Source of the DNA: a virus
IMG/VR virus record: IMGVR_UViG_3300045988_144682
Reading direction: 5' to 3' (one strand)
Length of the DNA stretch: 64,000 nt
The notes under the pieces are model-generated. The model saw only the letters and a program-made list of their open reading frames with translations, searched no databases and had not been told where the DNA came from. Position numbers and translations under genes: made by a program. This document shows, one piece after another, positions 8,386 to 56,045 of this stretch. Each line of letters begins with the position of its first letter. Positions within the stretch are counted from its first letter, which is position 1.

Positions 8386-9690
8386 ATGTTTGAATGGAAT
8401 CCAGTTTTTAATTTTGCAATGAACATCAAACATAATTATTTGAAAAAGTTCGGCAAAGTTGAATACAGAAAATATGAGATTGAAGAGAATGATACTACCA
8501 AAACGGTATCATGCTTAGAATACTGGATTAAAACACTTAACGATGAAACAGCCAAAGAAAAAATCAAATATCTTGAAATAAATCAGGAGGGGGATCTTAT
8601 CCTTATCCGATATGGTAAATTCAGTTCAGCCGGTGATGGTCAATACGAAATTACTGTTGAAGACCTCTGGAATGCAGATAATGGATTTTTCTTGGAATGC
8701 CGAAGTGTGGTAATCAATCTCAAAACAGAGGAAATTGTCATTGCACCATTTAAGAAGTTCCGAAATTTGAATGAATGTCCCGAAAATGATATAAAAGTCG
8801 TGACAGAAGAAATCAAGAATGCAAAAACTGTTGAAATCACAAATAAACTTGATGGAAGTATGCAGTGTGTACGTTGGTATAACGGCGAAATCTTCATGTC
8901 TGGCAGTCAGGCGATTAACCCTGATATGTCGTGGAGATTAGCCGATGGAATTTTACGACTAACAGACAATAATAAATGCATGGCAAAAGAAAATCCAAGT
9001 CTTACATTTATCTACGAATATATTTCATTGCCAGATGCCCACGTTGTCAAATACACGAAAGAGCAAGAAGGATTGTATCTGATTGGTATTAGAGATGTGA
9101 ATACCGGCAGACAGTATTCTTATAAAGAAGTTGCGGAGTATGCTGCTAAATATCATGTGCCGATGACAGAGATTTTTGACAAAACTTTTGATGAAGTATT
9201 GGAAGAAGTCAAGACAATCAAGTCGGATGAAATGGAAGGATTTGTAATTAACATTGATGGTCACATGATTAAAGTGAAAGGCGATGATTATACACAGATT
9301 CATAGAGTATTATCAAAAATTTCTTCAATCAATCTGATTATTCAGAGTGTGGCAGAAGATAAGGTCGATGATTTATACAGCAAAGTTCCGGCAGCATACA
9401 AACCAAGAGTACGGATAGTTGAGAAAATTGTTCGAGGATATATTTCAGACATGGAATCAGAAACTTCTAAATGGTACTCAAAAGCTCCAAAATCTGACAG
9501 AAAGACCTTTATGATTTGGGTACATGAAAATGTCCCACCGAAATTTAAGTCATATGTCAGAAACAAGTATTTTGGTATAGAAAACAATTATATCAAATAT
9601 GGAAGTGATAAATGCCCAGGTTATAGAAAACTTAACGAAATGGGTGTAACAGACTATAAGAAAATTTTTGAAGAGAGTGAGGAAGAGTAA
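8386..9690 (+). CDS. RNA ligase (T4 Rnl1-like nucleotidyltransferase)
   Basis: Motif I NKLDGS (KxDG), motif IV MEGFVIN, motif V IKVKG. Confidence 0.75.
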   Translation: MFEWNPVFNFAMNIKHNYLKKFGKVEYRKYEIEENDTTKTVSCLEYWIKTLNDETAKEKIKYLEINQEGDLILIRYGKFSSAGDGQYEITVEDLWNADNGFFLECRSVVINLKTEEIVIAPFKKFRNLNECPENDIKVVTEEIKNAKTVEITNKLDGSMQCVRWYNGEIFMSGSQAINPDMSWRLADGILRLTDNNKCMAKENPSLTFIYEYISLPDAHVVKYTKEQEGLYLIGIRDVNTGRQYSYKEVAEYAAKYHVPMTEIFDKTFDEVLEEVKTIKSDEMEGFVINIDGHMIKVKGDDYTQIHRVLSKISSINLIIQSVAEDKVDDLYSKVPAAYKPRVRIVEKIVRGYISDMESETSKWYSKAPKSDRKTFMIWVHENVPPKFKSYVRNKYFGIENNYIKYGSDKCPGYRKLNEMGVTDYKKIFEESEEE

Positions 9691-10640
9691 TGGAAAAACC
9701 AACTTTCGTGATGATGGTCGGTTTGCCTGGAAGTGGAAAATCTACTTTGGCGAAAGATATAAAGGACACGTATCATGGTACAATTTTTTCGTCAGATAGT
9801 ATCAGAGAAGAACTTACTGGTTCAGAAGAGTGTATGGATCAGGATAAAGAAGTATTTCAAACGCTTCATAGAAGAATTAAGGAATATCTGATAGAGCATC
9901 AGGGGACAGACGGTTGTGCAATTTATGATGCATGTAATATCAGTTATAAAAAGAGAATGGCATTCTTGCGTGAACTTAAAAAGATTGATTGCAGAAAAGT
10001 TTGCTATTTTGTATGGACTCCATATAAAATGTGTCTTGAACAGAACAAAAAGAGAGACAGAGTTGTACCGGAATATGCGATTGCACGAATGTACAAAAAC
10101 ATTTACATACCACAGTATTATGAAGGTTGGGATTCTATTATTTTTAATTTAAAACACGCAATAATAAATGGAAACAGCTTAACAAAATTGTTCTATGAGA
10201 TGCCAAATGGACTTTGTAGTATTGACCATGACAATCCACATCATCAGTTATCCATCGGAAATCATTGCATCGCATGTTATCTGAACGCTCTCACGATGAC
10301 AATGGATTCGCCGGATTTCAATTTATGTACGGCAGCATTGCTTCATGATATTGGAAAGTCTTTTACAAAAGGGTATAAAGACAGTAAAGGCAATTCTTGT
10401 GAATACGCACATTACTACCAGCATCACCTTGTATCTGCATATGATGCGGTTAGATATCTCAGATTTGTAGAAGAAAATGATAGGCTTGAAATTCTTGCAT
10501 TGATCCAGTGGCATATGTTCCCGTACTTCTGGGAGAAAGATAATAACACAAAGATGCAGAGCAAATACAAGAAATTATGGGGAGATGAGCTGTACGACAA
10601 AATCATGCTTCTCCATAAAGCAGATATGGAGGCACACTGA
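9690..10640 (+). CDS. P-loop polynucleotide-kinase-like domain fused to an HD phosphohydrolase domain
   Basis: Walker A GLPGSGKST; C-terminal LLHDIGK HD motif and downstream His residues. Confidence 0.8.
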   Translation: MEKPTFVMMVGLPGSGKSTLAKDIKDTYHGTIFSSDSIREELTGSEECMDQDKEVFQTLHRRIKEYLIEHQGTDGCAIYDACNISYKKRMAFLRELKKIDCRKVCYFVWTPYKMCLEQNKKRDRVVPEYAIARMYKNIYIPQYYEGWDSIIFNLKHAIINGNSLTKLFYEMPNGLCSIDHDNPHHQLSIGNHCIACYLNALTMTMDSPDFNLCTAALLHDIGKSFTKGYKDSKGNSCEYAHYYQHHLVSAYDAVRYLRFVEENDRLEILALIQWHMFPYFWEKDNNTKMQSKYKKLWGDELYDKIMLLHKADMEAH

Positions 10641-10855
10641 TGAAAAGTAAGAAACAGTTTGCCCGTGAAACAAATGGAGAAGTATACACAAGAAATGAAT
10701 TTGCGAAACTTGTAGACGCAGGAGCGTTTATTCCATATGACGGGATTGGATATTTCCATGATGGTACAAATAGAACAGATATAAGTGTATGGAATAATAG
10801 TCTTACAGCAAAAGATGTTGAAAAATACCCCTATGTATGTTGGTACAACAGATAA
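10640..10855 (+). CDS. Hypothetical protein
   Basis: 71-aa ORF; ATGA overlap with the upstream gene. Confidence 0.55.
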   Translation: MKSKKQFARETNGEVYTRNEFAKLVDAGAFIPYDGIGYFHDGTNRTDISVWNNSLTAKDVEKYPYVCWYNR

Positions 10856-11298
10856 ATAAAATTCATGTTTTGTCTATTATGAAATCCTATCCGTTGGTCG
10901 AAACTGAGTATTTGTATTCCATTTTTGAAATATTTATATCTAGTTTTTCCCTGTAAAGTATTCAGTGGTAGCAAAACTGCAAATGGTTTATTGAGATTAT
11001 ATAATCTTTCGAGAATTTGGTCTTTGATATTGAATGGTGGGTTTGAGATTATCACATCATAGTCATCAGGTTCATATAAGAAGAAATCTTTCCCTTCATC
11101 TATATGGGATCTGATGACATCAAATCCATTTTCCCTAAATGTTTGATAGAACGAAGACCATTCAGCATCAAACGGACACCATATTCTATAACTTTTCGGT
11201 ATATATTTTACGATTGGTTCAACCGCATAATATGGTGTATATAATTCCTGGTGTTCAGGCGTTTTACTACTGGTTAAATAACCAATGTTGTTTGCCAA
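10831..11298 (-). CDS. N6-adenine-type methyltransferase, flipped orientation with aberrant C-terminus
   Basis: IISNPPF catalytic motif; AAGGAG RBS plus TTG start at 11298. It is the only full-length minus-strand gene in the plus-strand arm. It ends 9 codons after crossing the repeat. Confidence 0.8.
   Translation of the reverse strand: MANNIGYLTSSKTPEHQELYTPYYAVEPIVKYIPKSYRIWCPFDAEWSSFYQTFRENGFDVIRSHIDEGKDFFLYEPDDYDVIISNPPFNIKDQILERLYNLNKPFAVLLPLNTLQGKTRYKYFKNGIQILSFDQRIGFHNRQNMNFIYLLYQHT
10860..10871. repeat. Left arm of 12-bp perfect inverted repeat (N6-MTase switch)
   Basis: AATTCATGTTTT; reverse complement of 11318-11329. Confidence 0.7.
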
Positions 11299-11317
11299 TT
11301 TATCACACTCCTTCGTT

Positions 11318-11329
11318 AAAACATGAATT
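11318..11329. repeat. Right arm of 12-bp perfect inverted repeat (N6-MTase switch)
   Basis: AAAACATGAATT. Confidence 0.7.
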
Positions 11330-11439
11330 CTACAATAGAGGGAAGTCCATTTGCAACTGCATATTTTTGTAAAGATTTTCTACCAAACGACTTAATTGTT
11401 GAGAAACTAGAAAAATATGAAAAAGGATTATTGAATTGA
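11330..11439 (+). CDS. Orphan 3' end of the N6-MTase gene (36 codons, no start of its own)
   Basis: The frame entering from the right repeat arm stays open: STIEGSPFATAYFCKDFLPNDLIVEKLEKYEKGLLN*. It stops 13 nt before the next ATG. Confidence 0.55.
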
Positions 11440-11452
11440 TTGGAGAAATTAT

Positions 11453-12094
11453 ATGAAAGTGATTTTTCTTGATGTTGACGGTGTGTTGAACTCAGAAAAA
11501 GATTTGTTAGAAGCAAAAGGAAAAAGTGAGCTGTTTGACAGACCGTTGGCATTATTAAAAGAGTTAGTCGAATCAACCAAAGCAAAAATAGTTGTATCAT
11601 CAACATGGCGAATTGGTTGTTCAAAAAGTGGTCGTAATTCGTGGTATGGAGAGGGAATCTTCAAAACACTTACAGATAGATTGGCAGAATATCAGATGGA
11701 AGTATATGATATTACACCAGTCATAAATAAGCCGGGAGTACAGCGTGGAGATGAGATAAGAGCGTGGCTTGAAAATGCAAAAGAAGAAATTGATGCATTT
11801 GTTATTTTAGATGACGATGCAGATATGTGTGAATTTACAGGAACGAATCTTGTACAGACTTCCATGAAAACTGGGCTACTGGAATATCATGTAGAAATTG
11901 CTAAAAGTATACTGAATGGCGAAAATATCACACATGATGTTGTCCTTGATGCAGTCCGTAAAGTGTGGGACAAATTACCTGAATTACGGTTTGGTCAGCT
12001 TATTGTAAATGTTTTGGGTTCAGATCCATTTTATGAATTAGACAAAAACGTAGTAACAAAAATGAGAAAATACGAAAGGAAAATAGGTGAATGA
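11453..12094 (+). CDS. HAD-superfamily phosphatase-like protein (type seen in RNA-repair loci)
   Basis: N-terminal FLDVDGVLN (DxD nucleophile motif); later ILDDD. Confidence 0.7.
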   Translation: MKVIFLDVDGVLNSEKDLLEAKGKSELFDRPLALLKELVESTKAKIVVSSTWRIGCSKSGRNSWYGEGIFKTLTDRLAEYQMEVYDITPVINKPGVQRGDEIRAWLENAKEEIDAFVILDDDADMCEFTGTNLVQTSMKTGLLEYHVEIAKSILNGENITHDVVLDAVRKVWDKLPELRFGQLIVNVLGSDPFYELDKNVVTKMRKYERKIGE

Positions 12095-12360
12095 TACAGC
12101 CAGTAATCGCACGAAAGCCTAAATTCGTGATAAATCCGCAAAGATCTCCAACATTAGGTTTTGGATTAGATACACCAGTTCATTATGCAACAAGGGTGTT
12201 TCTTCCAGGAAGTCAAAAAATAATTAACCTACCTATTTGTGGAGCAAATTGCGTATGTCCGTTATTACTTACGGACGATATTAAAAAGTGTACCTGTCAT
12301 GATTGTATTATTAAAGTAATGCAGCGAATGATAGGGATAAAACAAAAAAGGAGAAAATGA
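12091..12360 (+). CDS. Hypothetical protein
   Basis: 89-aa ORF; 4-nt overlaps on both sides. Confidence 0.5.
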   Translation: MIQPVIARKPKFVINPQRSPTLGFGLDTPVHYATRVFLPGSQKIINLPICGANCVCPLLLTDDIKKCTCHDCIIKVMQRMIGIKQKRRK

Positions 12361-13022
12361 AGATGAAGAAAAATCTGACACAGATGGTATTCGTTCTTGA
12401 TATGAGCGGATCAATGAAATGGCTTGCGCCGGAAACAATTGGTGGTTACAATACAATGCTTGCCGACCAGAAGAAAGAAGATGGCGATGCACTTGTAACT
12501 ACAGTTCTTTTCGACAATAGATATATCATGGTTCACGATGGCGTTGATATCAAAAAGGTTCAGAATTTAACTGACAAAGAATACAGACCAGAAGGTATGA
12601 CAGCCATGCTTGATGCCGTTGGAAGAACAATCAACCATGTCGGAAACAGACTTGCAGATATGCCGGAAGAAGAACGACCTGAAAAAGTTGTATTTACAAT
12701 TATCACTGATGGTTATGAGAATGCAAGCCATGAATTTGACTGGAATACAGTAAAAGAAATGATTAAGCATCAGCGTGAAAAATACAGTTGGGTATTTACA
12801 TTCTTAGGTGCGAATATTGATACCATGCAGGTTAGCAATGATCTGGGAATCAGTAGTATGTTGTCAAAAACATACAAAGCAAGTAAGAGTGGCACAGAAA
12901 AAGTATTTTCTGCAGCATCAAAATCTGTATCAGTCGCAAGAGGTGTAAGTGCCGATGCATTAAATAGTGCCCAGACTATGTGCTTCATGTCATCCGCACT
13001 GGATGAAGCGGAGGAAAAATAA
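12357..13022 (+). CDS. von Willebrand factor A (vWA) domain protein
   Basis: MIDAS motif VLDMSGSM with downstream T and D positions. Confidence 0.8.
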   Translation: MKMKKNLTQMVFVLDMSGSMKWLAPETIGGYNTMLADQKKEDGDALVTTVLFDNRYIMVHDGVDIKKVQNLTDKEYRPEGMTAMLDAVGRTINHVGNRLADMPEEERPEKVVFTIITDGYENASHEFDWNTVKEMIKHQREKYSWVFTFLGANIDTMQVSNDLGISSMLSKTYKASKSGTEKVFSAASKSVSVARGVSADALNSAQTMCFMSSALDEAEEK

Positions 13023-22944: not shown

Positions 22945-23283
22945 ATGCGAAAAAAGAATTTCAAAGGGCGATGTGAAAAAATCACAGTCACAAAATCAAA
23001 ATCAATCTGTAAAACCTACGATGATCTACAAAGAAGCTATCTCGAAAAATTAGAAGCAAATTCCGACATTCAAGAAATCCGTATGAATATCGTTTTAGAC
23101 AGCTTGCCAGATTATATGTCAGACTTTGTTTGTGTTAAGAATGATGGTGGTTTAATGGTGCGAGAATGCGTATATCGGAAATTTCTCACTAAACCAATGA
23201 CAGTAAAGTTATTGGACGATTCAAGGAACTATTGGCGAAATCATGGTGTAGAAGATTGGGGGTTAGTTATAGATGCAGAATAA
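22945..23283 (+). CDS. TnsA-endonuclease-like small protein
   Basis: GGAAGGAG RBS. YMSDFVCV...VRECVYRK...SRNYWRNHGVEDWGLVIDAE resembles the TnsA N-terminal restriction-like fold. Catalytic Lys position unclear. Confidence 0.5.
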   Translation: MRKKNFKGRCEKITVTKSKSICKTYDDLQRSYLEKLEANSDIQEIRMNIVLDSLPDYMSDFVCVKNDGGLMVRECVYRKFLTKPMTVKLLDDSRNYWRNHGVEDWGLVIDAE

Positions 23284-25099
23284 TCTTATCAAAATTCAAG
23301 ATGGCACGATTTACCGTATATTACAAGAACGTGACTCAGAATGGCTTGTAATTGATTGTATTAAGCGTACTATGCCGAAATGGATAGAAAGTTTGGCTGA
23401 ATTTGAAAGCGTGCCTGAAAGCGTTTTATGGGTGACTACTGGCATTTATCCGACTGACACAAACACTTTATCAACCAAAGAGAAGAAGTATATGAATGAG
23501 CATTACAGCTTGTTTGCTAGTGTTCTGGGCGTTATTGATGATGAGAAAACGAGAAGCTATATTATCCGTGAGATTGCTGAATTATATAAAGTTACTAAGC
23601 AGACAATACGCAACAATTTATGTTTATATTTAGTTTATCAAGATATTACAGTCCTGCTGCCACACAAAAAAGAAAAACGAAACTTGACCAATGATGAAAA
23701 AAATATGAGGTGGGCATTAAACAAATATTACTACACCACAAAGAAACACAGTATTTCCGATGTTTATACAATGATGCTGAAAGAGAAATACTGTGATGAA
23801 ACTGGTCATCTCAAAGAAGATCATCCTTCTATTCATCAATTCCGCTATTACTTTCAGAAGACCAAGAAGCTGCAAAATTTATATATCAGTCGTGGCGGTT
23901 TAAAGGATTATCAGAAAAATCATAGACCGTTGCTTGGTGATGGTGTACAGGAATTTGCCCCAAATGTAGGTTTTGGCATGTTGGATTCTACAATTTGCGA
24001 TATCTACCTTGTGAATGATGCAAGGGAAGTTGTAGGAAGACCGATATTGACGGCTTGTGTAGATGGGTATAGTGGTATGTGTTTAGGTTATTCGCTTGGT
24101 TGGAAAGGTGGAATATATAGTGTTAAGGGACTAATGCTTAATATCGTTGCAGATAAAAAGGAACACTGTAAAAAATTTGGTATTGATATTGCTGATAATG
24201 TGTGGGATTGCCACCAAATGCCAGGGGTAATGATAACAGATAAAGGATCAGAATATATATCTGAAAACTTTGAACAAATCACAGAACTGGGAATAAGGTT
24301 GATTGATTTACCATCGTACCGACCAGAACTAAAAGGATCAGTCGAAAAATTCTTTGACCTTATACAGAATTCTTTCAAAACCGTGTTAAAAGGAAAAGGT
24401 GTAATAGAGCCGGATTTTCAAGAAAGGGGCGCACACGACTATCGAAAAGATGCTTGTATCACATTGGAAATATTCGAAAAAGTCTTGTTACATTGCATCA
24501 TTTATTATAATAGTGGACGCATACTGGAAAATTACCCATTCACTGAAGAGATGCTTTCCGCTAACATAAAACCATTTGCTTGTGAAGTTTGGAATTATGG
24601 CAGAAACCGTAATAATGCAAACTTGATAGATGTATCTGCAGAGCAAGTTATTATGACACTGCTGCCTAGATGCATCGGCAAATTTGCCCGAAACGGCTTA
24701 AAGGTGAACGGATTACGATATAAGCACCCTAACTATACAGAAATGTATCTGAAAGGTGGGGAGGTTACTGTTGCTTATAATCCGGATTCTGTTTCTGATG
24801 TTTGGCTTATTGATAATGGTGAATATGTAAAATTTGAACTGATTGAAAGTCGATATGAACACATGAATGTGGCGAATGTTGCCTCAATAAACGATGTGAA
24901 AAAAGAAGTTATCAAACAAGCGGAAAATGAAAACAAGCAAGCAAAAATAAATTTGCTAAAAACGATTGAAGTCATAACGGCTGGATCAGTGCCAAAATCT
25001 GTCCCTATAAAGAAAATACGTGAAAACCGTACAAAGGAAGAAACTCGTACACATATTGATTTTACGAAGGGAGTAAAGAAATATGCTACAAGAAAATAA
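23273..25099 (+). CDS. tnsB: DDE transposase, TnsB/MuA family
   Basis: rve-like core with MLDSTICDIYL (D), MITDKGSEY (D), RPELKGSVEKFF (E); long C-terminal domain. Confidence 0.8.
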   Translation: MQNNLIKIQDGTIYRILQERDSEWLVIDCIKRTMPKWIESLAEFESVPESVLWVTTGIYPTDTNTLSTKEKKYMNEHYSLFASVLGVIDDEKTRSYIIREIAELYKVTKQTIRNNLCLYLVYQDITVLLPHKKEKRNLTNDEKNMRWALNKYYYTTKKHSISDVYTMMLKEKYCDETGHLKEDHPSIHQFRYYFQKTKKLQNLYISRGGLKDYQKNHRPLLGDGVQEFAPNVGFGMLDSTICDIYLVNDAREVVGRPILTACVDGYSGMCLGYSLGWKGGIYSVKGLMLNIVADKKEHCKKFGIDIADNVWDCHQMPGVMITDKGSEYISENFEQITELGIRLIDLPSYRPELKGSVEKFFDLIQNSFKTVLKGKGVIEPDFQERGAHDYRKDACITLEIFEKVLLHCIIYYNSGRILENYPFTEEMLSANIKPFACEVWNYGRNRNNANLIDVSAEQVIMTLLPRCIGKFARNGLKVNGLRYKHPNYTEMYLKGGEVTVAYNPDSVSDVWLIDNGEYVKFELIESRYEHMNVANVASINDVKKEVIKQAENENKQAKINLLKTIEVITAGSVPKSVPIKKIRENRTKEETRTHIDFTKGVKKYATRK

Positions 25100-26333
25100 G
25101 ATTATCGAATTATTACCACAAGTGTTATCGGGAGATCGTTTAATTGAAGAACTTGGGTATCTTCCAGCGTATAATGAAACAATAATAGAACAAAGTCAGG
25201 CAAGCAGATTACTGGCATTGTCGGATATATATAGGGTGTATGTGCCATCTGAAATGAGTATTGAAATATATAATAAATTATATTTGGCACTATTACTATC
25301 TATAAAAAAGAAATTCACGGCAGCAGCAGTAAAACAAAGATATGAGAATGCAAAAATGATAAAACGAATGGATTCTGTGGGAATAATCGGTGGTTCGGAT
25401 TCATTCACTATTATTGGTTCATCTGGTATTGGAAAGAGTAGTGCTATAGAAAAATCCATTGGACTCTTAACGGAAAACGCCATTATACAGGATGATGAAC
25501 TGATAGGGAATGTTATTCCTTGCCTGGTTGTACAGTGTCCTTTTGACAGCTCAGTAAAAAGTTTGCTTCTGGAAATTCTCAGAAAAACAGATGAGGTGCT
25601 TGAAACGAATTATTATGAGTCAGCTAAAAAATCAAGATATACGACAACAGATGTTTTAATTGGTTCGGTCAGTACGATTGCATTAAATCACATAGGACTT
25701 TTGATCGTGGACGAAATACAAAATGTGGTTAATTCTAAGAATGGGAAAAGCCTCATTGGATCACTAACACAGTTAATCAATAATAGCGGTATATCTATCT
25801 GCATGGTGGGAACACCAGAAAGTGTGCCATTCTTTGAACAGGCTATGCAGTTGGCACGTAGAAGTGTAGGGTTAAGATATGAAGCAATGGAATATGGCGA
25901 TTACTTCAAATTTTTATGTCAAGTATTATGGCAGTATCAATATGTAAAAGAGTGCGTAGAACTTACAGAAGAAGTCACGTACTGGCTGTATGAGCATTGT
26001 GGGGGTGTTGTTTCTATTCTTATAACATTGCTGCATGATAGTCAGGAAATGGCAATTATGAGTGGCTATGACACCTTAGATTTGACGATATTGGAAGAAA
26101 CATATAAAAGCCGGTTATCTATGTTACACGGATATATTAAGCCAAATATGGGAGCAAAAGCCAGCCAGAAAAGAAAGAAAAGGATGCCAGAAATCAGCAG
26201 TGAAATTCTTTGCATCGAAAACGAGTCCCTAATTTCAGACCTAAGTACAATCGTAAAACAGGGGGCAATGGATATTGATGAAATGATAAATAGAATGAAT
26301 GTGGCATTTATGGTAGAGGTGATTGCATGTTAG
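25083..26333 (+). CDS. tnsC: AAA+ ATPase, TnsC/TniB family
   Basis: Walker A GSSGIGKSS and Walker B LLIVDEIQN; positioned between transposase and TniQ. Confidence 0.8.
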   Translation: MLQENKIIELLPQVLSGDRLIEELGYLPAYNETIIEQSQASRLLALSDIYRVYVPSEMSIEIYNKLYLALLLSIKKKFTAAAVKQRYENAKMIKRMDSVGIIGGSDSFTIIGSSGIGKSSAIEKSIGLLTENAIIQDDELIGNVIPCLVVQCPFDSSVKSLLLEILRKTDEVLETNYYESAKKSRYTTTDVLIGSVSTIALNHIGLLIVDEIQNVVNSKNGKSLIGSLTQLINNSGISICMVGTPESVPFFEQAMQLARRSVGLRYEAMEYGDYFKFLCQVLWQYQYVKECVELTEEVTYWLYEHCGGVVSILITLLHDSQEMAIMSGYDTLDLTILEETYKSRLSMLHGYIKPNMGAKASQKRKKRMPEISSEILCIENESLISDLSTIVKQGAMDIDEMINRMNVAFMVEVIAC

Positions 26334-27700
26334 GGATTGTACCAAAGTTATACGAAGATGAGCTTTTTTATTCATGGCTGTGCCGGTATTATGTGGCAAA
26401 AGGTTTTACGTCCAATTCTCATTTTATAGAGGAAGTAACCGGGAACAACAGATTGTATTTGAATAAAGAGTTTGTGCCACCATTCAAAGCAGAGTTTCGC
26501 CATGACATTGAAAAAATATTTGGTTTTGAGAATGTTATAAGAAATCATACTCTATACGGACAAGAAGCACGTTTCTATACTGAGGAAGAAATAAATAATG
26601 TGTGGGAGCTTTTTCAGACAGATTCCTTTGATATTAGAACATTATTTAGAATGCAGAAATCAAAAGAGGGGCATTCTCTTAGTTATTGCCCTTTGTGTGT
26701 TAAAGAAGAACGGGAATCTATCGGTGAATGCTACTGGCATAAATCCCACCAAATACAAGGTATAGATATCTGTTTGAAACACAGGTGTAAGCTAAAAGAA
26801 TCCGAAATAAGAGTTGGTTCAAAACATAATGATATGATATCTCCGGCAGAATGGTGGTGTAATGATTCGGAAATAGAAATGGTAGAAAACACGCATTGCT
26901 TGAAATATTATAATTATGTGTGGGAAATTGCCAATGCCCCTTGTAACGGGATGGATGCAAAAAAGATTATAGCTCTGTTATACAAGAAGCTGAAAGAAAA
27001 AGGCTACCGGACACTAGGACAACGGCTTTTAGGGATTATGTCAGAAGATATGGAGCAGTATTATGAGGAAATGGGCGTATCTTATGAAATGTGTTATTCA
27101 ACATTACAGACAATATTTGCAAAGTATAATTATCCGTTTATTGCCATTATCCAAACAGCGTACTTTTTAGGTGTGACAGCAGAAGAGTTACTGAATCCAG
27201 TTGTTAGTGATTTTGATATTGCAGATGAGGAATGTAGCCACTATGTCAGTGACCGTAATAATACAAATATCAATCGTGATCTGATGGATCGAAATTATCT
27301 GAAATCTGTTAAAAGAGAATGTGAGTTGATATATAGTGGTCATTATCATGCAAAAGGAAGACCGATGAAAGTGTCTGCACTTAAAGTATGCAAGAGAGTT
27401 GGAATTACACATACTTTGATTAAGTTTATGCCACTTTGCAAGGCTTGTATTGATGAATATGCAGAAACGGATGACGAATATCATGCGAGGATTATTGTGT
27501 GGGCTTATAGAAAATTGAAAGCGGAAAAAACGGACGGTGAAATAATTCGTGTGTCAGAAATTCATAAACTTACAAGTGAATGGAAGGAAAATATCATAAG
27601 AGCATTGCCATATATGGCGAAATTTGCGGATCAAGAAATGATAAATGAGATAGATGCATTAGCGAGAGAGAAGCATTGGCATAGAAATTTAGTGGACTAA
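26327..27700 (+). CDS. tniQ: TniQ/TnsD-family target selector
   Basis: N-terminal LYEDELFYSWLCRY; zinc module CPLC...HKSH...CLKHRC. Confidence 0.75.
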   Translation: MLGIVPKLYEDELFYSWLCRYYVAKGFTSNSHFIEEVTGNNRLYLNKEFVPPFKAEFRHDIEKIFGFENVIRNHTLYGQEARFYTEEEINNVWELFQTDSFDIRTLFRMQKSKEGHSLSYCPLCVKEERESIGECYWHKSHQIQGIDICLKHRCKLKESEIRVGSKHNDMISPAEWWCNDSEIEMVENTHCLKYYNYVWEIANAPCNGMDAKKIIALLYKKLKEKGYRTLGQRLLGIMSEDMEQYYEEMGVSYEMCYSTLQTIFAKYNYPFIAIIQTAYFLGVTAEELLNPVVSDFDIADEECSHYVSDRNNTNINRDLMDRNYLKSVKRECELIYSGHYHAKGRPMKVSALKVCKRVGITHTLIKFMPLCKACIDEYAETDDEYHARIIVWAYRKLKAEKTDGEIIRVSEIHKLTSEWKENIIRALPYMAKFADQEMINEIDALAREKHWHRNLVD

Positions 27701-32155: not shown

Positions 32156-32428
32156 CTATAATAAAGAACTCATTTCGATAATGCAGCGTTTCATTTTTTC
32201 CATTTCTGTCATTTCCCGAATGATAAATCTTGTATGACCGTCTTCTTGCCAAATATTTGTACATATCATATCGGCATAGTCAACGCCACCTATATTAACT
32301 GTTGTTAAATTGTTATCAGACAAAAGTTCCATATTAACCACATCGTCTGTTATATAATTGTTTCCATTCATTGTGGCGTGAATCTCTGTTTTGTCTGCGA
32401 GGATAATATTGTAAATAGTATTTTCCAT
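32156..32428 (-). CDS. Hypothetical protein
   Basis: GGAGG RBS; the start lies inside the last 95 nt of the RT ORF. Confidence 0.5.
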   Translation of the reverse strand: MENTIYNIILADKTEIHATMNGNNYITDDVVNMELLSDNNLTTVNIGGVDYADMICTNIWQEDGHTRFIIREMTEMEKMKRCIIEMSSLL

Positions 32429-33602
32429 CTATAAAACCTCCAAATAAATCAAAATAAAGAAGATTCAAATTATCTCGTTGTATTTTACTCATTAAATGAG
32501 CATGACCGCCCATCCATGCACGAAACATATTCTCAACTTCTTCTTGTGTACGTTCTCCACGTATAACTTTTAGACTAAGTTTCTTTAATTTTCGCCTCAT
32601 ATCAACAATTCTTCTTGGATTTATTTTTCTAATAACCCTACCAGTATCGGTAAGAGAATAGGTGATTTGCAGAAATTTATAGTAATCTGATAATTTTACG
32701 ATTCTTGTCTTTTTGCGATTGAGAGTCATACCTAATTCTTTTGCTTTTTCTGCAATTTCTATTTCAAGCTGTACTAAAAATTCTCTGTCACGGTGGATAA
32801 CATAACTGTCATCCATATACCTTCCATAAAATTTCTGACTTTTTACAATTTTTACAAAATTATCTACAGGTGTTGGATAAAAGATACCTATAATTTGAGA
32901 ACATTGATCCCCAATATTTACAGATTTGCGCATATACTTTTCGCCAGTATGAGCAGATTTAGGAATTTTCAATCTATATTCAGTTGAATTAAATGGAACA
33001 TTCATACAATTTGAAAATTCTTCATCATTCATATACGAAACATCAATTTTAAAATTATCAAAAATCTGTTGTAACAACCAAAGAGAAAATTCATCATTCA
33101 CATGCTTGGCAATTTCTCGATAAGCTATATCATGTGGAATATTATCGTAAAACTTACTATAATCCATCAATAAAATATATCCGTCATTACCATACATTCG
33201 ATAATATTTATGTAAATGTTCTTCAAAGCGTTTTCGACTAAAATCAATGCCTTTGCCCTTAAGAGAAGCACCATTATCATAGATAAGATAATCTATGAGA
33301 GATGGAGATAAAACGTTATCACAAAGAGAATGACGAATTACTCTGTCAGACATTTGTAGTCCTGTAATTGGTCGAACTTTACCACGTTCATTGATAATAA
33401 ATTCAGAAGATGGTTTTGAATGATATTCTCTATTCTTTAACAAATCCTTGGTTGATACAATATTAGGCAAAAAGTCAATTCCATACTTTTGTACTTGTGG
33501 TTTCCAATCAGAATCTTTCTTGGCTGCGAGAAATGCAGAATATAATGAGTTCAAATCATATACAATATTATCTACATTGTCTTGAGCATTTTCTTTATTC
33601 AT
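32334..33602 (-). CDS. DGR reverse transcriptase
   Basis: LLMDYSKFYDNI, DGR-type IGDQCSQ motif and catalytic YMDD; lies immediately 3' of the template repeat. Confidence 0.9.
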   Translation of the reverse strand: MNKENAQDNVDNIVYDLNSLYSAFLAAKKDSDWKPQVQKYGIDFLPNIVSTKDLLKNREYHSKPSSEFIINERGKVRPITGLQMSDRVIRHSLCDNVLSPSLIDYLIYDNGASLKGKGIDFSRKRFEEHLHKYYRMYGNDGYILLMDYSKFYDNIPHDIAYREIAKHVNDEFSLWLLQQIFDNFKIDVSYMNDEEFSNCMNVPFNSTEYRLKIPKSAHTGEKYMRKSVNIGDQCSQIIGIFYPTPVDNFVKIVKSQKFYGRYMDDSYVIHRDREFLVQLEIEIAEKAKELGMTLNRKKTRIVKLSDYYKFLQITYSLTDTGRVIRKINPRRIVDMRRKLKKLSLKVIRGERTQEEVENMFRAWMGGHAHLMSKIQRDNLNLLYFDLFGGFIDGKYYLQYYPRRQNRDSRHNEWKQLYNRRCG

Positions 33603-33778
33603 TTCATAATCTTTTCTTTCATAATCATATTTATTTATATTTGACGTATATAGCAATCAGTCGTAACGAATTGCATCGTCTTTATCTTTTTGCGTATTAT
33701 ATAACACACGCAAGGACAACTTCTCCTTTCTTCGTTTCCTGTATCTGCATATAGCATAGTTAAACAGGCAGAAGAAAT

Positions 33779-51347: not shown

Positions 51348-51375
51348 TAATCTTGCAAATAATAATAGTAATAAA
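51348..51375. repeat. 28-bp inverted repeat, left arm
   Basis: TAATCTTGCAAATAATAATAGTAATAAA; 26/28 complementary to 51961-51988. Confidence 0.85.
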
Positions 51376-51426: not shown

Positions 51427-51960
51427 ATGGCACTTATTAAATGTCCTGAGTGCGGAAAAGAAATTTCCGACAAATCAAAACATTGCATTCATTGTGGATA
51501 TCCACTTGATGAATTAAAAATAAATAATACCAACCAACTCTACAAAATTGTATTAACAGATCATGGCAAAAACAAAGTTCAAACAATTGCCAAAATCCGT
51601 GAATTTACCGGCATGGGATTAGCCGAAGCAAAGAAATTTTCTGAATCTTTACCACAAGTAATTCAATCTGGTATCAACATGGATGAATGTAATTTGATAC
51701 AGTCACACTTTTTATCAGTCGGTGCAACCGTAGAAATTCAGCCAGATAATGAATCTGTTTCAAAAAACACAGTTTTAGAGAATAAACCAATAGCAAAAGC
51801 TATAGTTAAAGACAAAAATGTAATTACTTGTCCGAAATGTGGATCTACTGCTATCGTAACCACAAATAGAGGATTCTCTATAATGACTGGATTTATTGGC
51901 TCTGGCAGTCCACGTAATGTATGTCAAAATTGTGGATTCAAATGGAAACCAAGAGCATAA
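51427..51960 (+). CDS. Zinc-ribbon / ribosomal L7/L12 C-terminal-domain-like / zinc-ribbon protein
   Basis: CPECG...CIHCG; AKIREFTGMGLAEAKKFSESLP resembles the L7/L12 CTD; CPKCG...CQNCG. It is the only convincing plus-strand gene in the late arm. Confidence 0.75.
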   Translation: MALIKCPECGKEISDKSKHCIHCGYPLDELKINNTNQLYKIVLTDHGKNKVQTIAKIREFTGMGLAEAKKFSESLPQVIQSGINMDECNLIQSHFLSVGATVEIQPDNESVSKNTVLENKPIAKAIVKDKNVITCPKCGSTAIVTTNRGFSIMTGFIGSGSPRNVCQNCGFKWKPRA

Positions 51961-51988
51961 ATTATTACCATTATTATTTGCAAGATTA
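51961..51988. repeat. 28-bp inverted repeat, right arm
   Basis: ATTATTACCATTATTATTTGCAAGATTA, starting right after the stop of the 51427 ORF. Confidence 0.85.
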
Positions 51989-55010: not shown

Positions 55011-56045
55011 TTATAGATCACTTAAAGACGAACTCTTACCTTCCACAATTCCATCTTTTGTGAAATACTTACTGAATTCTTCGGAAACCTCACTATCGTT
55101 GTAGAGATTAACCATGTCCGAACTACTCCATCCGAAAAATTCCTGAACAACATTTGCCGGGATATTCAGCTTCAATAATTTTGTGTTGAGATAATGTCTC
55201 ATGCAGTGCCAGTAAAAATCCACACCTAATTCATTTGAGAAGATGTTCGCCCAACTATCAAGAGTACTGACTTTCATTTGTGCATAAGAACCATCACCAC
55301 ATCTATGTACAAAAAGCCATTCGCTCTCAATGCCTTGTTTCTTACGTTGTTCCATCCATAAATCAAGGTATTTCTTAAACTCATAAAGCACATATTTATT
55401 GAGCTGTTTACCTGTTTTACCAGCTCCCTTAGTTTTGATCTTAGGAGTCTTATATAAACCACCATAAACAATATTGTTCTCATCGAAGTATTCAACTTTG
55501 AATCTCAACAATTCTGATTTTCTAGCACCACTCATTGCAGCCAAAGCAAAAGCACATGCCTGTTGGTATCGTTCTTCACTAACCAATTTATCTAAGAATT
55601 TATCTACGTCATCATCTGGGATAATGGTTTTCTCACGAACAGCTTCGTTCTTCGGGGATTCAATCTTTCCAATAATGGATCGGAAATTCTCAAAATCTTC
55701 GTCTTCGTCCTGTAAAATATTTTCAATATAATTTGACATGCTACTGATAGCAGATTTTACCCTACGAATTCTTTTCGGACTCCAACCCCATTCATTGATT
55801 GCATATCCCTGGAATCGTGCAAGCTCACGTTTCTTGATATCAACAAAAAATTTATTGTTGTTGTACTCTAAGTTCCAGCAGAAGAAAATTTCTAGGTCGT
55901 TTCTGTACCCGTTAATTGTAGAAGGGGCACGATCAATAGACGCAAGATATTCAAGAAAATCTTCACAAAGTTGTTTATTGTTTGGATTGATTTTCTTGAT
56001 AGATTCTTCGTTTGTAATTTTGTTATAAATTGTTGTTCTACCCAT
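55011..56045 (-). CDS. Tyrosine recombinase (phage integrase family)
   Basis: N-terminal SAM-like core-binding domain; SGARKSEL (Arg), HCMRHY (HxxR), NLYND (Tyr). Confidence 0.85.
   Translation of the reverse strand: MGRTTIYNKITNEESIKKINPNNKQLCEDFLEYLASIDRAPSTINGYRNDLEIFFCWNLEYNNNKFFVDIKKRELARFQGYAINEWGWSPKRIRRVKSAISSMSNYIENILQDEDEDFENFRSIIGKIESPKNEAVREKTIIPDDDVDKFLDKLVSEERYQQACAFALAAMSGARKSELLRFKVEYFDENNIVYGGLYKTPKIKTKGAGKTGKQLNKYVLYEFKKYLDLWMEQRKKQGIESEWLFVHRCGDGSYAQMKVSTLDSWANIFSNELGVDFYWHCMRHYLNTKLLKLNIPANVVQEFFGWSSSDMVNLYNDSEVSEEFSKYFTKDGIVEGKSSSLSDL

Follow-up and report, generated by a model that had tools for sequence, protein, structure and literature searches.

An orphan N6-adenine methyltransferase gene of a gut phage is most likely toggled by a programmed inverton, a DNA inversion switch which is used recurrently. 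The locus was analysed in a window of 64,000 nucleotides, i.e. the whole stretch of DNA considered here (Table 1). A cassette of 470 bp with 12-bp arms carries the ribosome binding site (RBS), the start codon and codons 1-146, the last 36 codons being fixed outside. In the ON orientation, the gene is whole and colinear with the plus-strand operon; in the OFF orientation, which is the one in the window, the 5' module faces away from the 3' module and runs antisense to the operon. According to the proposed mechanism, strand exchange would take place within the repeat and would be catalysed by a site-specific recombinase supplied in trans. The carrier is a ~160-164-kb SPbeta-like phage of human-gut Lachnospiraceae, its host is probably Fusicatenibacter saccharivorans, and hundreds to thousands of public-assembly blocks contain its structural genes.

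Table 1. Position of the switch, its neighbours and further features in the window.
Feature	Position	Strand	Remarks
Upstream gene, 71 aa	10640-10855	+	phrog_14149, function unassigned; stop codon 10853-10855; outside the switch
OFF-state ORF, 155 aa	10831-11298	-	methyltransferase residues 1-146 and 9 out-of-context codons
Start codon TTG of the OFF-state ORF	11296-11298	-	
RBS AAGGAG of the OFF-state ORF	11308-11313	-	CTCCTT on the plus strand
Cassette including both arms, 470 bp	10860-11329		
Left inverted-repeat arm AATTCATGTTTT	10860-10871		in the spacer between the upstream stop and the ON-state methyltransferase RBS
Invertible segment between the arms, 446 bp	10872-11317		OFF orientation in the window
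Right inverted-repeat arm AAAACATGAATT	11318-11329		in the ON state codes for Q-N-M-N(S), methyltransferase codons ~143-147
Fixed 3' module of the methyltransferase gene	11330-11439	+	36 codons and stop, STIEGSPFATAYFCKDFLPNDLIVEKLEKYEKGLLN
Stop codon of the restored 182-aa ORF	11437-11439	+	
Downstream HAD_SAK_2-family gene	11453-12094	+	outside the switch; plus-strand operon continues
Transposase module	23273-27700	+	TnsB-like transposase, TniB-like ATPase, TniQ-like protein
Reverse transcriptase	32334-33656	-	RVT_1, phrog_1423
27-bp inverted repeat	51348-51374 / 51962-51988		96% complementary
Gene between the 27-bp repeats	51427-51960	+	zinc-ribbon protein with ribosomal L7/L12 C-terminal domain
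Xer-like tyrosine recombinase	55011-56045	-	PF00589, 64 bits; candidate invertase in trans

The right arm is the exact reverse complement of the left arm, and the match extends to 15 nt if one mismatch is allowed. A preliminary description had reported perfect 12-bp inverted repeats with a spacing of 446 bp and had placed the RBS, the TTG start and about 146 codons of a methyltransferase inside the segment. Repeat positions and spacing were confirmed to the base, and 146 codons were counted within the segment, followed by 9 as assembled. These 9 codons lie beyond ...QNMN and end the ORF with ...QNMNFIYLLYQHT and a stop, within the described 25-nt overlap with the convergent 71-aa gene, which is read in antisense there. 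The ORF contains motif I (WCPFD) and motif IV (NPPF) and is the sole convincing minus-strand gene within the plus-strand arm. Inversion of the cassette in silico gave a plus-strand ORF of 182 aa ending with ...QNMNSTIEGSPFATAYFCKDFLPNDLIVEKLEKYEKGLLN and a stop; the 36 further codons and the distance of 13 nt between the stop and the next ATG were thereby reproduced. The locus had also been termed an "intragenic inverton". The word inverton is supported, but not the adjective in its strict sense: one arm is located in the spacer that precedes the RBS, so that the locus is a "partial intergenic" inverton in current terminology. The 71-aa gene is strain-variable and was absent in loci L003, L004 and L291-L295; due to its presence or absence, the length of the OFF read-through ORF varies between 155, 174, 180 and 222 aa.

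The repeat by itself proves nothing. The window is AT-rich and contains 44 inverted pairs of perfect 12-mers at distances of 100-3000 bp compared to ~25 in shuffled sequences, and the arm motif has 4 matches with at most one mismatch (2.8 expected, no enrichment), so that neither the pair nor its motif is remarkable. The case for an inverton therefore rests on the continuity of the reading frame and on the comparison with other genomes. In the latter, the cassette was the sole stretch of the window aligning to the opposite strand of related contigs, and other perfect 12-13-bp inverted pairs overlapping the locus (10096/12004 and 10906/13755) were never found inverted. No extra copies of the arm site were present near the recombinase gene or elsewhere within the window. 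A promoter and terminator scan of the locus yielded nothing beyond chance (6 promoter-like sites, 8.1 expected). A second candidate inverton, at the 27-bp inverted repeat, was rejected, since three related loci (L007, L008 and L283) keep the orientation of the window. The gene enclosed by this repeat is the sole plus-strand gene in the minus-strand structural arm.

Numerous independent assemblies of this phage and of two diverged relatives have the cassette in the alternate orientation. In L001, L002 and L029, exactly 10857-11332 is inverted with respect to the window, whereas L003, L004, L015, L016, L018, L020 and L021 have the window's orientation. Searches blind to the state of the switch retrieved 45 contigs, 27 OFF and 18 ON, which form two clades with 99% (clade A) and 78-80% (clade B) protein identity to the methyltransferase of the window. 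Both states are present in both clades, irrespective of the source: clade A comprises 5 OFF and 2 ON contigs in IMG/VR and 10 OFF and 2 ON metagenome contigs, clade B comprises 5 OFF and 8 ON contigs in IMG/VR and 7 OFF and 6 ON metagenome contigs. A third lineage (C, represented by L139) is OFF and has a different gene neighbourhood. The breakpoints lie within the repeat in every case. Two further loci, both retrieved via a gene 10 kb away, were OFF (L301) and ON (L302).

The same picture was obtained at the protein level. The homologue P0001 (99% identical, full coverage) has the colinear form, and P0006, P0016, P0010, P0066 and P0118 share one junction, ...NM(N/D) followed by F..., after which their tails are unrelated. 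In the index of public assemblies, 169 blocks contain the exact OFF protein of the window and 453 the exact ON protein; the latter is P0121, identical to WP_118174816.1, and is named from Fusicatenibacter saccharivorans and Ruminococcus sp. Samples with the phage include ERR13989931, DRR875484, SRR35107732 and ERR15662103, in which the assembly is ON, and ERR3502012, SRR29665798, SRR27943988 and SRR25701110, in which it is OFF. The 25 matches of a pattern scan for the junction in metagenome contigs all stem from different assemblies. No sample was listed for both the exact ON and the exact OFF protein, and a 579-bp low-coverage contig considered as an instance of coexistence in one sample turned out to be merely an OFF junction with a chimeric end. 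With 9000-13000 as megablast query, no match was obtained in the GenBank phage collection. The ON contig L017/L148 (IMGVR_UViG_2149837021_000104, 13,443 bp) ends at the last base of the right arm, as expected of an assembly-graph branch in a sample with both orientations. Besides the lack of decay in OFF copies (see below), this contig end is the only, and indirect, hint at both orientations within one population. On a 13.5-kb Logan contig (P0091), a chimeric ORF runs from the antisense of the downstream HAD gene into the methyltransferase at residue ~25. This is an OFF-state deletion derivative without right arm and 3' module, locked and decayed.

ON and OFF genomes can be virtually identical. 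L026 (OFF) and L122 (ON) do not differ at all over 2701 nt of flanking sequence and throughout the 449-nt segment, and L014 (ON) and L026 (OFF) differ in 3 of 5449 nt. In neighbour-joining trees of the 2.5-kb flanks, ON and OFF loci are interleaved. When the complete OFF loci of clades A and B were flipped, an ORF of 181 or 182 aa was obtained for 45 of 46 and one of 193 aa for the remaining locus; identical reconstructed proteins are present in both the ON and the OFF set. The flips are recent and repeated, and the OFF copies show no decay.

The two arms covary. In clade A, the upstream arm is AATTCATGTTTT and the gene arm is AAAACATGAATT. Taking these as reference, clade B has AAATTCATATTT and AAATATGAATTT, the change in the gene being synonymous (AAC to AAT), and lineage C has AAATCCATATTT and AAATATGGATTT, with AAT changed to GAT (Asn to Asp). 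As each of the three variants is perfectly complementary, two compensatory double changes must be assumed. Perfect arms were present in all of the 85 inverton loci examined, and the upstream arm forms a conserved island in an otherwise diverged spacer. The complementarity of the repeat is thus maintained by selection. The repeat is also necessary, since more distant loci have neither arm pair nor inversion: at 59 IMG/VR loci with homologues of 63-68% identity, the upstream arm was absent, none was inverted and the longest arm match was 4-7 nt (10 nt at one locus), which is no better than elsewhere in the gene. Likewise, loci with homologues of ≤ 58% identity had no upstream arm and none was inverted, and the species-representative genomes searched contained only distant homologues without the repeat. 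A 10-nt inverted match (CATATGTTCT, at position -92 upstream and in the ...HMD... codons) is present in L218 (IMGVR_UViG_3300006147_000478, 63% identity) and may be due to chance or may be the independent start of a similar repeat.

Concerning the enzyme which catalyses the inversion, the Xer-like tyrosine recombinase is the sole site-specific recombinase among the precomputed Pfam annotations of the window and its flanks of 10 kb each (84 kb of the ~164-kb genome). Its catalytic residues R174, H279, R282, W305 and Y314 are invariant, and homologues are encoded on contigs of clade A (100% identity) and clade B (78%). The gene is 44 kb away from the switch, and no invertase gene adjoins the switch. 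The best curated matches, XerA, XerC and XerD, are far below their cut-offs, and the score against the FimB/E-type model is 23 bits with a cut-off of 221. The recombinase has 344 relatives in IMG/VR and belongs to the core genes of a very large family of phages. Since its protein family occurs in hundreds of related phages, the recombinase is unlikely to be dedicated to the switch and probably has another primary role. We therefore regard it as a doubtful candidate for the invertase; the inversion may equally well be catalysed by a recombinase from another part of the phage genome or from the host. The gene is located between tail-tube/chaperone genes and the tape-measure gene, an unusual position which is conserved in 100-190-kb gut phages.

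The two arms have dissimilar flanks and share only 12-15 bp, which is shorter than most characterised recombinase sites. Such short arms without similarity around them, the lack of a dedicated invertase near the switch and the efficient recombination in large phages would also suit an inversion independent of any recombinase, in which the repeats are a hotspot for template switching at the fork or for general recombination of the phage, and selection then maintains both states in the population. Against this, the window contains ~30 further perfect inverted pairs (≥ 12 bp, members within 3 kb of each other), including two that overlap the locus, and none was inverted in related contigs. In addition, three lineages use the same site, with the upstream arm conserved through exact compensatory changes, and the flips between otherwise identical genomes imply a rate far above the one usual for homology of 12 bp. 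A recombinase-independent origin is, thus, considered rather unlikely, although it is the strongest competitor of the programmed inverton.

The segment had been described as an "OFF (or alternative C-terminus) state", and the two parts of this claim fared differently in the protein analysis. Among 5.8 billion proteins searched, the reconstructed protein has 701 homologues, most of them ~181 aa long with 99-100% query coverage; the typical homologue is colinear and has the C-terminus ...EGSPFATAYFC..LP.DLI.E.L. The 36-codon continuation is therefore the C-terminus of the family, and homologues match the 182-aa form over its full length, in agreement with the earlier proposal that the flip restores the gene. 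PHROG 799 ("DNA methyltransferase") was matched with E = 8.5e-37; its score increased from 119.8 bits for the assembled form to 128.4 bits for the reconstructed form, and the end of the alignment moved from residue 146 to residue 163. In an alignment of 29 homologues (65-91% identity), NPPF (residues 86-89) and WCPFD (residues 40-44) are invariant, as are 10 columns within the last 36 residues (G151, P153, F154, A155, Y158, F159, C160, L168, E171 and L180), including the block G-PFA--YFC. In the AlphaFold model of P0002, an ON homologue with 91% identity (pLDDT 80, pTM 0.79), core β-strands 156-161 and 168-171 fall in the 3' module, which contributes a core strand modelled with confidence. Since this module stays outside the cassette, an OFF product, if made, would lack a core β-strand. 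The flipped, colinear gene is accordingly the functional form.

A second functional protein with an alternative C-terminus might be made from the inverted state, as the OFF ORF retains RBS and start codon, continues for 4-76 codons past the junction and has a weak promoter-like site on the minus strand (11356-11327). However, promoter-like sites are not above chance at this locus, and the tails are unrelated between lineages (FIYLLYQHT-stop, FIYQ-stop, FIYQWASL..., FVYIQLFQCP..., FIKFLAIF...), being lineage-specific antisense read-through of the neighbouring gene. The differences between the tails leave no conserved alternative product, and the module lost has 10 invariant residues and a core strand. 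A recoding inverton is consequently very unlikely; the OFF part of the claim was upheld and the alternative C-terminus was not.

In the window alone, the gene looks simply broken, as it would after a one-off mutational inversion which was inherited by a sub-lineage and does not constitute a switch. This explanation is extremely improbable considering that each of two clades contains ON and OFF loci, which are interleaved on the flank trees, that near-identical ON/OFF pairs exist, that the OFF copies show no decay and that the repeat is kept by covariation. Assemblers can in general be confused by inverted repeats, but chimeric reads or false joining at the repeat are practically excluded as the cause, since the 12-bp repeat is shorter than any k-mer of the assemblers used (SPAdes, MEGAHIT and Logan) and both orientations were found in dozens of independent samples on contigs of up to 226 kb.

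Judged by its motifs and fold, the enzyme is a minimal class I SAM-dependent N6-adenine methyltransferase of the gamma-like type. The closest folds to the AlphaFold model are M.TaqI, a gamma-class N6-adenine DNA methyltransferase, and CamA (TM ~0.55). Both DNA and rRNA methyltransferases are among the fold neighbours, and some family members are named "tRNA (adenine-N(6)-)-methyltransferase" at NCBI; DNA is the likely substrate. Pfam matches (EcoRI_methylase, MTS and Eco57I) were all below the gathering cut-off, and the search of PDB sequences with the methyltransferase gave no meaningful match. No restriction partner was found within 10 kb of the gene.

Several known inversion systems resemble the proposed switch in part. 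In the G segment of phage Mu and the C segment of phage P1, the adjacent genes for the serine invertases Gin and Cin act on 26-34-bp sites, and the C-termini of tail fibres are swapped, which changes the host range. As in these systems, the segment is phage-borne, one boundary is within a gene and two heritable types of phage result. In contrast, the target is a DNA-modification enzyme and the sites are unlike gix and hix. The precomputed Pfam annotations of the 84 kb include no serine recombinase of the resolvase family, and the locus differs from the Gin/Cin/Hin class in having no small serine recombinase nearby and arms sharing just 12-15 bp, as opposed to 26-bp dyad sites. The fim switch of E. 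coli, where the tyrosine recombinases FimB and FimE flip a promoter between 9-bp inverted repeats, is a closer analogue in mechanism. The tyrosine recombinase RecV of C. difficile acts in trans on several invertons (PMC5386303). The very short repeats and dissimilar flanks are shared with fim and the RecV invertons, whose tyrosine recombinases can act from a distance or on more than one site and which we propose as the mechanistic model; they flip promoters, whereas here the 5' part of a coding sequence is flipped.

Phase-variable methyltransferases driven by inversion are known from the Type I hsdS "epigenetic invertons" (PMC7672463) and from epigenetic phase variation in the gut (PMC11741434). 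There, as in the phage, inversion changes the methyltransferase genotype heritably and presumably reversibly. For the most part, these systems rearrange the specificity domains of restriction-modification systems in cells, in contrast to the split catalytic core of a solitary phage methyltransferase. The locus also differs from shufflons and other module-swapping systems, as the OFF sequences after the junction are unrelated between lineages and antisense to the neighbours. For gut bacteria, partial-intergenic invertons and invertons causing premature stops were surveyed with PhaVa/PhaseFinder (10.1101/2023.03.11.532203), and gene-altering programmed inversions were described (PMC9881135). These have in common with the phage locus a short repeat pair with one arm in the coding sequence, an altered product and the occurrence of both orientations in natural gut populations. 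Unlike them, the present inverton is on a phage genome, has arms of just 12 bp and lacks an adjacent recombinase gene; it also has no alternative module to bring in, which makes it a pure ON/OFF switch. A full-text literature search, incomplete in its coverage, found no description of an inverton in a phage methyltransferase, which is absence of evidence only.

The benefit of the programmed inverton may be bet-hedging. Methylated progeny would escape cognate restriction, unmethylated progeny would escape methylation-dependent restriction, and in a lysogen the switch could change the methylation of the host. The phage has at least four other methyltransferase genes, which points to strong restriction pressure by the host. 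Inversion phase variation is a bacterial strategy, often directed against phages, and is known in phages for tail fibres. New is that a widespread gut phage appears to use it on its own DNA modification. Provided that it is real and reversible, the switch would make phage populations epigenetically heterogeneous by design, with a bearing on host range, on the escape from restriction and methylation-dependent defence and on the methylomes of lysogenic hosts. More speculatively, and with less in its favour than against it, the locus could be a virus-borne "phasevarion", in which mixed progeny or lysogens with and without one N6-adenine modification arise through flipping by the tail-module recombinase at a fim-like site; this would make it the first phage for which a programmed epigenetic switch for bet-hedging is described. 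For annotation, it is of practical importance that gene callers turn the OFF state into a truncated or chimeric ORF with a length of 150-231 aa, and that clustering splits one methyltransferase gene into several protein "families". The locus offers a clean system: the cassette measures 470 bp and its sites 12 bp, variants of the sites occur naturally, and many public samples exist for either state.

Some further observations concern other genes of this phage and its relatives. Related phages have several C5 DNA methyltransferase genes (L139, 17957-19738; L301, 1-1134), and one C5 methyltransferase (593 aa, L139) is interrupted by an intein (Hint_2, Intein_splicing). The transposase module of the window, whose TnsB-like transposase carries HTH_TnsB and Mu-transpos_C (phrog_310), may represent either an element of the Tn7/Tn5053 type or a module for replication and integration like that of Mu. 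Numerous related contigs stop ~10.1 kb downstream of the methyltransferase, near 21.6 kb of the window, which may be the boundary of an element or a genome end. Finally, the reverse transcriptase adjoins tail-fibre genes and is probably part of a diversity-generating retroelement.
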